64,000 bases of DNA from Eledone cirrhosa (taxonomy: Eukaryota): NCBI GenBank assembly GCA_964016885.1, contig OZ024744.1:15810001-15874000 (forward strand), read 5' to 3'. Position 1 is the stretch's first letter. Every line of letters begins with the position of its first letter. Positions 18,463 through 56,462 of this stretch are shown here, in pieces. The position numbers and the translations under genes were made by a program. Below the pieces are notes generated by a model. The model ran no database searches. It saw only the letters and a list, made by a program, of their open reading frames with translations, and had not been told where the DNA came from.

Positions 18463-18660
18463 ATAACGAAGGAGGTGTGGTAAGGAACTAGATGTACCAT
18501 AACGCACCAGAGTACTCGATACTTAGGGTAGTAGTGTGTTTAATAGGAAAAGAGTCAGGTCCCCGACGGCTGAATTCCGGCCGTTTCGACAGCTAGATCC
18601 GAACTCTAGTTGTCGAAACTGCCGGAACTCAGCCGTCGGGGACCTGACTCTTTTTCCTAT
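18463..18660. mobile_element. PLE-like terminal fragment ending in a fold-back (18543-18660) with two HHR 3' halves
   Basis: Inverted arms around loop tccgaac (18598-18604). Each arm reads GAAAC-helix III-GTC-gggg. Related to the reverse complement of 56229-56462. Confidence 0.65.
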
Positions 18661-20093
18661 ATATACATACATATATATATACATATATACATATATATAA
18701 ATATATATACATATATATATATATATATACATATATATATATATATATATATATACATATATACATATATATAAATATATATATATATATATATATACAT
18801 ATATACATATATATAAATATATATACATATATATATATATATATACATATATATATATACATATATATATATATATATACATATATATATATATATACAT
18901 ATATATACATATATATATATACATATATATATATATATATATACATATATATATATATATATACATATATATATATATATATATATATATATATATATAT
19001 ATATATATATATACATATATATATATATATATATATATATATATATATACATATATATATATATACATATATATATATATATACACATATATATATATAT
19101 ATATACATATATATATATACATATATATATATACATATATATATATATATATATATATATATATATATATATATATATGTATATATATATATATATATAT
19201 ATATATATATATATATATATATATATGTATATATATATATATATGTATATATATATATATATATATGTATATATATATATATATATATATATATATACAT
19301 ATATACGTATATATATATATATACATATATACGTATATATATATATATACATATATACATATATACATATATACATATATAAAAATATATATATATACAT
19401 ATATATATATATGTACATATATATATACATATATATATATACATATATATATATACATATATATATATATATATAAATATATATATATATATATATATAC
19501 ATATATATATATACATATATATATATATACATATATATATATATATATATGTATATATATATACATATATATATATATATATACATATATATATATATAT
19601 ATACATATATATATATATATATACATATATATTTATATACATATATATATATATATACATATATATATATATATATATATATATGTATATATATATATAT
19701 ATATATATATATATATATATATATATATATATATATATATATGTATATATATATATATATACATATATATATATATATACATATATATATATATATATAT
19801 ATACATATATATATATATATATATATAAATATATATACATATATATATATATATATATATATACATATACATATATATATATACATATATATATACATAT
19901 ATATATATACATATATATATACATATATATATATATACATATATATATATATACATATATATATATATATATACATATATATATATATATATATATATAT
20001 ATATATATATATATATATATATACATATACATATATATATATATATATATATACATGTATATATATATATATATATGTATATAAATATATATA
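18661..20093. repeat. Interrupted (TA)n microsatellite
   Basis: Direct reading; the YIYI ORFs are artefacts. Confidence 0.98.
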
Positions 20094-21010
20094 TTAGAAA
20101 GTGAGGTTTTTTTTACAAAATGAAAAATAACCGAGGTGTCCTACACGAGTTAAAGTATAAAGAAAAAGAGATGAAATCGAAAATGCAACTAAAGTTTATT
20201 TTAAAAAAAATATATATATATATATTTAATTGGTTCCTTTACCGGTTTCGCAGTTCTTCTGCTTTTCAAAAGGTGAGTTGAGATGGAGGGTCTGTGGTTT
20301 TTCTCACTGAGATGTGAGAAAAACCAAAGACCCTCCATCTCAACTCACCTTTTGAAAAGCAGAAGAACTGCGAAACCGGTAAAGGAACCAAATAAATATA
20401 TATATATTTTATTTTTAAATAGGACTCCAGTTGCATTTTCGATTTCATCTCTTTTTCTTTATACTTTAACTCGTGTAGGACACCTCGGTTATTTTTCATT
20501 TTGTAAAAAAAACCTCACTTTCTAATATATATATTTATATACATATATATATATATATGTATATATATATATATGTATATGTATATATATATATATATAT
20601 GTATATGTATATGTATATATATATATATATATGTATATATATATATATATATATATATATATATATGTATATAAATATATATATTAGAAAGTGAGGTTTT
20701 TTTACAAAATGAAAAATAACCGAGGTGTCCTACACGAGTTAAAGTATAAAGAAAAAGAGATGAAATCTAAAATGCAACTGGAGTCTTATTTTTTTAAAAA
20801 TATATATATATATTTATTTGGTTCCTTTACCGGTTTCGCAGTTTTTCTCACATCTCAGTGAGAAAAACCCCAGACCCTCCATCTCAACTCACCTTTTGAA
20901 AAGCAGAAGAACTGCGAAACCGGTAAAGGAACCAAATAAATATATATATATATATTTTTTTTAAAAATAAACTCCAGTTGCATTTTCGATTTCATCTCTT
21001 TTTCTTTATA
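20076..21010. mobile_element. Two fold-back insertions of one non-coding HHR family (20076-20545 and 20666-21010)
   Basis: Arms attagaaagtgagg... and ...cctcactttctaat are mirrored about 20310; the second copy is asymmetric. Confidence 0.8.
20348..20385 (+). ncRNA. Minimal type I hammerhead ribozyme, U3-A8 variant (also 20236-20273 on - and 20892-20929 on +)
   Basis: cctt TTGAAAA gcag-aagaa-ctgc GAAA ccgg TA aagg: helix I, helix II and a palindromic helix III loop. Confidence 0.75.
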
Positions 21011-21107
21011 TATATATACATATATATATATATATATATATATATATATATATATATATATATATATACATATATATATATATATATATATATACATATA
21101 TATATAT

Positions 21108-21315
21108 ATTAGTTTTAATATAGATGAGATTCTACAGGACTAGAACTGTTTTCTTCTTTAGAAATCATCAGGAATCTCTGAGATTCCTGATGATTTCTAA
21201 AGACTGAAACAGTTCTAGTCCTGTAGAATCTCATCTATATTAAAACTTTTATACCCTGCAATGTATTGAGTACCTTACTTACTGTGGTTACCTTCGATTC
21301 AACCCGGAATAACGT
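21108..21315. mobile_element. PLE 3' terminal fold-back with two HHRs (21126-21178 on -, 21180-21232 on +)
   Basis: gagattc CTGATGA tttctaaagact GAAA cag-ttctagtc-ctg TA gaatctc. The left arm is identical to the PLE end at 23011-23081; the tail matches 38884-38952. Confidence 0.8.
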
Positions 21316-21902
21316 ACATATATATATATATATATATATATATATATATATATATATATATATATATATACATATACATATATATATATATATATACATA
21401 TATATACATATACATATATATATATATATATATATATATATATATATATAGATATATATATATATATATATATACATATATATACATATACATATATACA
21501 CATATATATATACATATATATACATATATATATATATATATATATACATATATATACATATATATATATATATATATATACATATATATACATATATATA
21601 TATATATATATATATATATATATATATATATATATATATATATATATACATATATATATATATATATATATATATATATATATATACATATATATATATA
21701 TATATATATACATATATATATATATACATATATATATATATATATATACATATATATATATACATATATATATATATATATATACATATATATATATATA
21801 CATATATATATATACATATATATATATATATACATATATATATATATATATACATATATATATATATATATATATACATATATATATATATATATATATA
21901 TA

Positions 21903-54372: not shown

Positions 54373-54501
54373 TAAAGATATATATAGCTTAAAATGGAGT
54401 GAGAATAAGAAGAAAGCACTAATTGGGGGGGGGGGTCCTCATCAGTTGTCTACTGGGAGTCTCGGATATTTCCACGATTTAAAGACAAGATATCTACCCC
54501 C

Positions 54502-55007
54502 AGAGCGTTTAATAACTGGGTAAGTTATTGGGAAAACCGAGGAGGGAGGGAGGGAAAATAGAAGGGAAAAGGAAAGAGAAAATACCGAAAAATAAACAAC
54601 AAACCGAGCAATGTGCGAGCAACTTAAGGTAAGAAAATCCAAGACCACAGCGATAACAGAACTTAAGTTCAAGACCGTGTGGGCGAGCGAAAGGACACGT
54701 GTGACCCCAGCGAGTGTAAGTGAGAAAAGGACTGCTAGAGGGTCAGGTGAGGGAAACAATGGGGTGACCCTCTAGCAGTCCTTTTCTCACTTACACTCGT
54801 TGGGGTCACACGTGTCTTTTCGCTCGCCCACACGCTCTCGAACTTAAGGTCTGTTATCGCTGTGGTCTTGGATTTTCTTACCTTAAGTTGCTCGCACATT
54901 GCTTGGTTTGTTGTTTCTTTTTCGCTGTTTTCTCTTTTCTTCCCTTTTCCCTTCTATCCCTCCCCTCCTCCGTTTTCCCAATAACTCACCCAGTTATTGA
55001 ACGCTCT
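54502..55007. repeat. Imperfect inverted repeat, arms of about 243 bp, 19-bp spacer
   Basis: ...ggactgctagagggtca [54746-54764] tgaccctctagcagtcc... Confidence 0.9.
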
Positions 55008-55881
55008 ATTGCATGGTCAGGTCGTCCGCGACTAAACCGGCAACCCTACCAACTTTACTTGGTGAGGAGGGTGATTTTGGACACCCTGCAAGACAAAAAA
55101 CCAAACCTGACCAAGGACGAAGAACTCATAAGAGTCAACGGCCATCCAAAAGTGTGTAAATATGTATATACACATGTACCGCGCGGTTAAACCCCTGGGA
55201 GTGAAGGACCTCTAGCCTTTGTCAGGGCATTCTTCTAGGAGAAGGCAACTCAGGAAACTGGCATAACACCGATATAAAACCTGCGGCTCAGTAGTTACCG
55301 ATGATGTTGATCTTTTCTTCTTTTCGGGTTATAGCTACTGCCGCTCAGAGAGTGGGATTGGCTCAGTGCACAGTCTTTCTTCACTTAAAAAAATATCCTC
55401 ACTCGCAGGCATTGCACGATAGAATTAATTAATAATTATTAATAATGATATATCGTGCAATTGCCATACACGATAACGAGGGGGCAGCCATCATGTGTAT
55501 ACACACACACACACACATATATATACACACATACATATATATATATGCACACATACACACACACACACACACACACACACACACACACACACACACACAC
55601 ACACACACACACACACACACACACACACACACACACATATATATATATATATATATATATATATATAATTCATATATATATAATATATATATAATTCAAC
55701 ACAGATATATACATATATATGTTGAAATCATAAGGGACCAGATTCGAGCAAATCTGGCTGCTATTTTTAGTAGCAAACGTTTTACGAGACAGGCTCGGCA
55801 CTGAATGCCATGTGCGTTATTCTAAACACGCGCCTCATTTAGTCTTCTAAGAAACCTAGAAGTGAAAGGTTTAATAATTCG

Positions 55882-55961
55882 TACAACCACTGACGAGCAA
55901 TAGAATTGGTAATTCCCTTCACCTTATGCGAAACAGTTTTACCAAAGACTGTCTGGTTGTG
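55882..55961 (+). ncRNA. Canonical type I HHR with a stable helix III
   Basis: acaacca CTGACGA gca...tgc GAAA cagtttt-acca-aagactg TC tggttgt. Confidence 0.85.
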
Positions 55962-56228
55962 TATTTGATAGTTGTCACAGTTCGGTTTGTACTTTTTCTT
56001 AATTTATTCTTTTGATTGAGCCTGGTAAGCCGTATTGTTCGTAGTTAGTATCTTATTGATCCTAGCGAATCTAGTCCCTTATGATTTGAAGACATATAGG
56101 AATATATGTGTTTATCTCTCTTTATTATATTGAATTATATTACGCGGCCCGGAAAATCATTTTTTCCGCTTGAGCTATTTTAATTGAAAGGCGCAACTTT
56201 GAGTTTCTAACTATATATATATATATAT

Positions 56229-56462
56229 ATAGGAAGAAGTATGACCCCGACGGCAGAGCTCAAGCCGTTTCGACGGCTATTTCTGGACTAAATTAGAATT
56301 TTAGGCTAAAAATTCTAATTTAGTCCAGAAATAGCCGTCGAAACGGCTTGAGCTCTGCCGTCGGGGTCATACTTTTTTCTATTTCCCACTCTACTACCCT
56401 AAGTATTGGGTACTCTGGTGCGTTATGGACCATTTAGTTCCTTACCACAATTCCTTTGTTAT
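56229..56462. mobile_element. Fold-back (56229-56382) with two HHR 3' halves plus tail; same family as 18463-18660
   Basis: GAAACggc-ttgagctct-gccGTCgggg on both arms; shared tail ccctaagtat...gtactctggtgcgttatgg. Confidence 0.7.

Follow-up and report, generated by a model that had tools for sequence, protein, structure and literature searches.

The window analysed here, a stretch of 64,000 nt from the genome of Eledone cirrhosa (GCA_964016885.1, contig OZ024744.1, positions 15,810,001 to 15,874,000), contains six palindromes with outward-pointing strands in the sense of a hammerhead ribozyme (HHR). Judged from the window and from related loci in the same genome, these palindromes are probably head-to-head pairs of one tailed and one tail-less end of Penelope-like elements (PLEs), made by twin priming in cut (TA)n. 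The palindrome structure itself is already known, and the twin-priming reading with its two quantitative rules is the useful, testable part.

A palindrome scan of the window placed the axes at 18601, 20310.5, 21179, 22675.5, 38082.5 and 56305.5, with 50, 94, 67, 235, 203 and 71 arm pairs and 3, 2, 3, 1, 0 and 2 mismatches, respectively. With arms of 50-235 bp and 0-3 mismatches the six palindromes are far beyond chance and real, and in 6/6 the HHR-sense strands run into (TA)n, as a first-pass annotation of the window had said. Further axes from the same scan lie at 20604.5 (TA-centred) and 54755, and an asymmetric pair at ~20857 and a head-to-head tandem array at ~44128 were added by reading the window sequence. 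The palindromes were assigned to the coding-PLE terminal repeats A (56305), its relative A2 (18601), B (20310), C (21179), E (38082) and G (23084-25466) and to a tandem HHR repeat, family D (22675). For each query the best 30 loci (25 in one case) were taken from the 191-2212 candidates found in the 3.0-Gb genome, 40 candidates being scored; the loci sampled in this way (L numbers) are mostly young copies.

The arms of each family end at two fixed outer positions, a tail-less one (S) and a tailed one (L), which are 33-137 nt apart. Among 144 distinct head-to-head pairs of families A, B, C and E, 137 combine one L and one S arm, 4 are L/L and 3 are S/S; the L/S combination was also found in 13/13 pairs of D, 9/9 of G and 18/19 of A2. 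About half of the pairs would be expected to be L/S if the sites were chosen independently, and both exceptions were accessible to the searches, as core queries could reveal S/S pairs and tail queries L/L pairs. Removed before counting were 14 simple-repeat hits of family E, 14 family C satellite loci, 8 mirror or local duplicate rows and arms ending at the reference edge. The 137 L/S pairs include L074, whose longer arm stops within the tail, and the set of 136 pairs used below leaves it out. The window pair at 20310 is L/L and lies within a locally duplicated stretch. Consistent with the (TA)n targeting that had been noted in the first pass, TATATA flanks both sides in 103 and one side in 9 of 112 L/S pairs of the genome sample; in targets of this kind any target-site duplication would be masked. 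None of 199 pairs scored against eight references was cross-family, all being same-family, and a C-G fusion at 23084 that had been considered as a mixed pair is a local copy. Partner arms share variants beyond permutation in A (24 vs 2.4, 0/2000 permutations), and compared with shuffled pairs 23 vs 13.6 were shared in B, 5 vs 0.9 in C and 7 vs 0.7 in E. Same-family pairs and shared variants would fit one source RNA and do not separate the models compared below. At four loci (L105, L094, L175 and L199) partner arms of only 6-15 nt were observed beside TA; the piece in L105 stems from beyond the L end and suggests a third start site.

When compared with natural long copies, the 5′-ends of the arms cluster at one base per family, here termed +1. 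Arms obtained with tail-only queries or incidentally end at −11..−2 in 3 cases, at −1..+9 in 97 and at +10..+19 in 16; in the tail-only samples, which come from families A and C and not from B and E, the corresponding numbers are 1, 25 and 4 of 46 arms in A and 0, 25 and 8 of 51 in C. The edge is as sharp on S arms as on L arms, with 24 S and 20 L arms at −1..+3 and one of each at −11..−2 in 62 pairs. The +1 base is located 30-31 nt downstream of TATAAA (B, C) and TATTTA (A), in surroundings which we take to be a TATA box with an initiator-like context. A non-native G precedes +1 in 26 of 37 arms of families A-C, against 61 of the 230 arms with other end points (p=4e-7), and was present on 6/13 S arms and 12/14 L arms; A′ copies, whose upstream sequence is unknown, were excluded from the boundary and G counts. 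In L1 insertions an additional G signals that a cap has been copied (PMC11702581), and the TATA spacing and the extra G make +1 the likely capped 5′-end of the transcript of the pseudo-long terminal repeat (pLTR). A promoter in the pLTR has been described (PMC2377424).

Relative to the ribozyme, +1 is the first base of helix I in C, lies within helix I in E and inside loop II in A and A2, and precedes helix I by 38 nt in B and by ~60 nt in G; on this view the axes would lie near the HHR only owing to its place at or close to the transcript start. At 21179 both arms are at +1 with the G, at 20310 and 18601 one arm is at +1, the arms at 38082 end at +8 and +10, and those at 56305 reach −19 and −13, a minority class. 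An early clustering of family A ends at −10..−25 proved to be a query artefact. HHR cleavage sites were also considered as RNA 5′-ends and rejected, as inspection of the junction data revealed no pile-up of arms there.

Copying of the second arm from the first by snap-back was assessed under the assumptions that it starts from the tailed arm, that the second arm is nested and that at least 5 bases are available for primer and loop. As the sequences stand, without later editing, 84 of the 136 L/S pairs are incompatible with such an origin, the S arm outreaching the L arm on the 5′ side by over 10 nt in 30 and the centre being too tight for a loop in 54; the L arm reaches further 5′ in 22 pairs. 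The L arm consists almost of tail only in 11/136 pairs and in 4/9 pairs of family G, and in the 8-kb pair L274 the S arm holds RT (reverse transcriptase) sequence that is missing from the L arm. Later deletion was rejected as the cause of the +1 edge and the G on S arms (6/13) because deletion only shortens arms. By sequence logic, the 84 pairs, the tail-only arms and the G on S arms suggest that both arms were independently RNA-templated. The joints resemble end-joining in that inserted bases are present in 72/144 and overlaps of at least 2 nt in 34/71 insert-free joints (without L021), vs 17% expected. Junction calls shifted by a few bases between lenient, strict and scored rules, and the scored rule was used.

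From the pair structure, the fixed S and L outer ends, the shared +1 boundary, the extra G and the microhomology and inserts at the joints we infer a reaction with one start site per DNA end, RNA run-off, cap copying and joining of cDNA 3′-ends. The endonuclease (EN) would cut both strands of (TA)n and each DNA end would prime its own cDNA on the element RNA, with S, the inner of the two internal start sites, serving one end and L, the outer one, serving the other. If priming takes place in the transcript's 5′ pLTR, the two cDNAs would run off the nearby RNA 5′-end and yield stubs, the cap often being copied as the extra G, and the cDNA 3′-ends would be joined to each other and filled in. Priming in a downstream pLTR would give long pairs such as L274, and tandem retrozyme-like RNAs (D and the further tandem family F) would be handled by the same machinery in trans, on templates that are multimeric or circular and have no fixed 5′-end. 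A broader form of this proposal is held more tentatively, at slightly less than an even chance: two-ended priming would be obligate, with a protein dimer holding one capped RNA at two fixed sites, one per DNA end, a single reaction would produce the tail as well as the inverted pLTR and short palindromes, the positions of the axes would reveal from DNA alone where PLE transcription begins, and tandem retrozymes would use the same reaction in trans.

Independent DNA came from three other samples (Illumina short reads) and from the contigs of a separate study; it tests the families and not the six window loci. On native A sequence a read-depth step was found at the predicted +1 (L024:1517), which may partly reflect subfamilies diverging upstream, together with loose ends at S and L leading into TA. 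Opposite-strand joints were also recovered, and among the 14 listed 10 have one side at +1..+7, some leading into the tail; 20 more joints exist beyond those listed. On native B the depth step is weaker, and the few joints and loose ends present lie at +1..+9.

Several observations weigh against twin priming. Snap-back is compatible with 52/136 pairs, that at 18601 among them, variants shared between arms are also expected under snap-back or gene conversion, and later rearrangement of palindrome centres is possible. Families E, G and A2 are without a TATA box at −31, the extra G is not enriched in E (1/12, where overlap with the partner arm hides the G) and was counted in 3/7 arms of A2 and 2/3 of G, and the capped-start status of +1 is deduced from DNA alone. 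In family A a small share of the arms, the two at 56305 among them, reaches −11..−22 (5/46, tail-only sample). Moreover, the strict L/S rule is left unexplained by the in vitro data on a PLE protein, in which start-site use did not differ between strands (PMC11167929).

The assignment of families A, B, C, E and G is based on linked open reading frames (ORFs). In family A, EN is located upstream in L024 and RT in L025/L028; EN is located upstream of B in L276/L277, RT and EN accompany C in L274 and G in L292, and in L275 the repeat and tail of E continue into an RT-EN ORF. RT was identified by motifs read by eye and by tblastn; the Pfam match was GIY-YIG at 27767-28612 only, with none on the RT or L024 fragments. 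Core and helices of a type I HHR motif were recognized by reading and folding in the pLTR of all five families, so the HHR-like cores claimed in the first pass are present; those of A and B are of the U3-A8 variant described for PLE hammerheads, and a palindromic helix III, likewise described together with opposite-strand HHR pairs (PMC4209133), occurs in D, B and E. An Rfam scan scored HHR in family D copies alone, with three HH9 matches below the gathering threshold; other Rfam matches were mostly microRNA look-alikes arising from palindromes and TA, and the ORF list was mostly TA noise. These sequence features identify A, B, C, E and G as the pLTR ends of EN-containing (EN+) PLEs, and an inverted 5′-truncated copy with a tail at one end was found in each of them. 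The PLE origin suggested earlier is thereby upheld, and the many small HHR RNAs that were thought to be mobilised turn out, in these families, to be the ends of elements with RT and/or GIY-YIG ORFs.

Families D (467-nt monomer) and F (310-nt monomer) are tandem repeats with a type I HHR in each monomer, and their coding capacity was judged from the list of ORFs of 120 aa only. They are retrozyme-like tandem HHR repeats by sequence, with putative self-cleavage and putative circular RNA. The 13/13 pairs of family D with the tailed/tail-less signature bear out the insertion of such tandem HHR repeats in the manner of PLEs. Upstream of its HHR, the family D monomer (L122; window 22300-22345) contains the octamer-like motif ATGCAAAT, for which we presume a likeness to promoters of the small nuclear RNA type. 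At G000:C28:30.707-30.735 Mb (L065-L084) the HHR of family C (−14 to S) forms the ~78-nt units of a satellite array, possibly a retrozyme-like array arisen from a pLTR, and at L274:1500-9500 a 3-kb simple-repeat-rich 3′ region of family C is present in both arms of the 8-kb palindrome. The G and E ORFs (L292, L275) are rich in asparagine over long stretches close to the RT thumb or the linker, as described for Adineta PLEs (PMC3846280). A further PLE fragment at 26547-28940 includes the GIY-YIG ORF 27767-28612 (CxxC upstream), whose EN is ~50% identical to that of family B, and is inverted relative to a B-like HHR end at 26547.

In the mechanism put forward in the first-pass annotation, small HHR RNAs are mobilised by the PLE RT, and snap-back priming at a ribozyme helix or at a native hairpin beside it completes the insertion. 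The axis positions given for this rule were partly accurate: 18601 and 56305 lie inside loop II, 22675 on the palindromic helix III and 38082 at the start of the core. The native hairpins upstream of the HHR at 20310 and 21179 were not recovered, as long native copies carry unrelated upstream sequence. Across the site no fold beyond shuffles was detected in B, C and E (fractions of shuffles as stable 0.21, 0.73 and 0.44), and in family A the fraction was 0.02. Hairpins at ~20857 and 23075-23090 are local copies of the same insertions, with which they share private junction letters; the false native hairpin near 23080 results from the local copy of the 21179 S arm at 23014..23083. The enrichment of axes at HHR helices that had been asked for was absent from the genome-wide sample, where the junction overlap equals an HHR helix in 2/144 pairs of A, B, C and E, namely L166, with a 5-nt overlap equal to helix III, and L021, a doubtful parse. 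In family D, junctions scatter round the monomer and only that at 22675, with an 8-nt overlap, is on helix III (1/13). Apart from these matches, the coincidence of +1 with helix I in C and E speaks for priming at ribozyme hairpins; in B and G the HHR lies well away from the boundary, and most families are coding PLE ends, which together with the helix counts leaves this mechanism a very slim chance.

The main rival to twin priming is that the tailed cDNA is made first, folds back at any microhomology and copies itself, after which EN cuts the copy at S and central deletions follow, with no role of the ribozyme. Such self-priming would account directly for the strict L/S rule. Craig 2021 ascribes the tail to EN-mediated resolution (PMC8557442), cDNA snap-back is documented in R2 (PMC11371274), and the 52/136 compatible pairs, the variants common to both arms and the excess of overlaps in insert-free joints agree with it. 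Against this, 84/136 pairs need secondary edits, S arms reach +1 with an extra G of their own, which deletion cannot supply, tail-only L arms are joined to full S arms in raw reads too, and S is an RT start site in vitro (PMC11167929), so we regard this explanation as unlikely. Self-priming on an antisense RNA template was put forward for the head-to-head palindromes at PLE junctions (Arkhipova 2013, PMC3846280). It is highly improbable for the pairs described here, since the TATA at −31 and the extra G on the sense strand make the boundary fit a sense promoter, loops are too tight in 54/136 pairs and tail-only arms are not predicted. That the palindromes are fold-backs of sequencing, amplification or assembly has a probability next to nil: assembly errors may underlie the local duplicates of two insertions at 20095-23090 and the L/L pair, but the arms end at two fixed distinct sites and differ by substitutions, and strand-switch joints recur in the reads of three samples and the contigs of another study. 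In this respect the earlier view of real genomic structures was correct.

The structure is not undescribed, as had been supposed in the first pass, for head-to-head junction palindromes with self-priming as their cause appear in Arkhipova 2013 (PMC3846280), and inverted truncated copies, the one-end tail and the (TA)n bias are published (PMC8557442; PMC8969392). Insertions of EN+ PLEs (PMC3846280; PMC8557442) share with those studied here head-to-head pLTRs, the junction palindrome, an optional tail at one end, the (TA)n bias, the pLTR HHR and an RT with C-terminal GIY-YIG; tails are 33-137 nt here and 30-40 nt there. Self-priming or EN resolution is proposed in these papers, and in the portions available no tailed/tail-less count or G-marked 5′ boundary was found. 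Craig 2021 calls the origin of tandem and inverted PLE structures and of the tail unresolved (PMC8557442). The PLE protein PAc (Anolis Poseidon; Frangieh 2024, PMC11167929) in vitro cuts and extends both strands of an AT-rich target and initiates reverse transcription at two internal sites delimiting the tail, which is in line with twin priming; it is also a predicted dimer and does not need HHR cleavage. It differs in that start sites were used without strand bias, and inverted insertions are not addressed in the text available. Twin priming of L1 (PMC11702581) likewise involves a second RT start from the other DNA end, an end-joined junction and an extra 5′ G. The second L1 site is set by microhomology and the pieces barely overlap, whereas PLE arms overlap and form palindromes because both start sites are fixed and close. 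R2 snap-back (PMC11371274) also places an antisense copy beside the cDNA 3′-end, but its copies derive from the first cDNA, which most partner arms here cannot.

Retrozymes lacking long terminal repeats (non-LTR retrozymes) resemble D and F in being tandem type I HHR repeats, and PLEs have already been proposed as their mobiliser and origin (PMC7229834; Li 2026 bioRxiv 10.64898/2026.07.22.740005). The support given here differs in being insertion anatomy, with two fixed ends and head-to-head arrays in TA, from DNA alone, and the 467-nt monomer of family D exceeds the circles of 170-400 nt cited for retrozymes. No paper applying twin priming, a 5′-end axis or the cap G to PLE inversions was found in the open literature, subscription papers (e.g. 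PLE reviews of 2005-2006) not being covered. In the existing in vitro system each insertion should, by this proposal, show one start at S and one at L, either cDNA should be able to extend to the cap, and ribozyme helices should be dispensable. The counts moreover offer anatomical evidence for the insertion of tandem HHR repeats by PLE machinery, until now argued from co-occurrence and phylogeny, and, if the proposal is true, PLE transcription starts could be read from palindrome axes in DNA alone.

The arms and related features of the window are listed in Table 1.

Table 1. Palindrome arms and associated features, in window coordinates.
Feature	Position	Strand	Remarks
Family A2, L (tailed) arm	18466..18605	-	5′-end 18605 = A of native TTAGTT (+1)
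Family A2, S (tail-less) arm	18605..18657	+	From +9 to S site, into (TA)n
Family B, left arm, tailed	20097..20307	-	Starts at +5; pair is L/L, exception to the rule
Family B, right arm	20309..20522	+	Extra G 20309, +1 A 20310; HHR (U3-A8 core) ~40 nt downstream, then tail
Inverted local copy of family B insertion	20687..21007	.	Same junction letters, L/S, internal deletion
Family C, S arm	21112..21178	-	To +1 (21177), plus extra C 21178 (= sense G)
Family C, L arm	21180..21314	+	Extra G 21180; +1 A 21181 = first base of helix I; HHR; tail
Family D, L arm (467-nt tandem HHR repeat)	21904..22679	-	1.7 monomers
Family D, S arm	22672..22909	+	8-nt overlap with L arm on palindromic helix III
Local copy of 21179 S arm	23014..23083	-	Fused to family G RT fragment
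Family G PLE	23084..25466	.	Inverted RT fragment 23084-24334 (-) head-to-head with plus part (~24337-25466: 3′ untranslated region, HHR, tail)
Family E, L arm	37743..38083	-	5′-end at +8; tail of 137 nt; helix II of the HHR long
Family E, S arm	38084..38285	+	5′-end at +10
Family F, 310-nt tandem HHR repeat	42512..45586	.	5+5 cores head-to-head, by direct reading; junction ~44128 outside HHR; left end tail-less, right end ~33 nt longer
Family A, S arm	56232..56302	-	Extends to −13
Family A, L arm	56303..56459	+	From −19; +1 at 56322; helix III, cleavage site, 80-nt tail

The local duplicates of the B and C insertions at 20095-23090, one of them inverted about the TA tract at 20604, may be due to rearrangement or assembly error. 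Outside the studied families, a GC-rich diverged palindrome with ~185-bp arms and a 9-nt spacer, without TA flanks, was observed at 54569-54941, and a long tandem array with a unit of ~52 nt occupies ~6500-18160. Additionally, non-LTR copies of long interspersed nuclear elements (APE endonuclease and RT), (TA)n-bounded too, are located at 30681-31960, 39606-42478 and 49954-53456.

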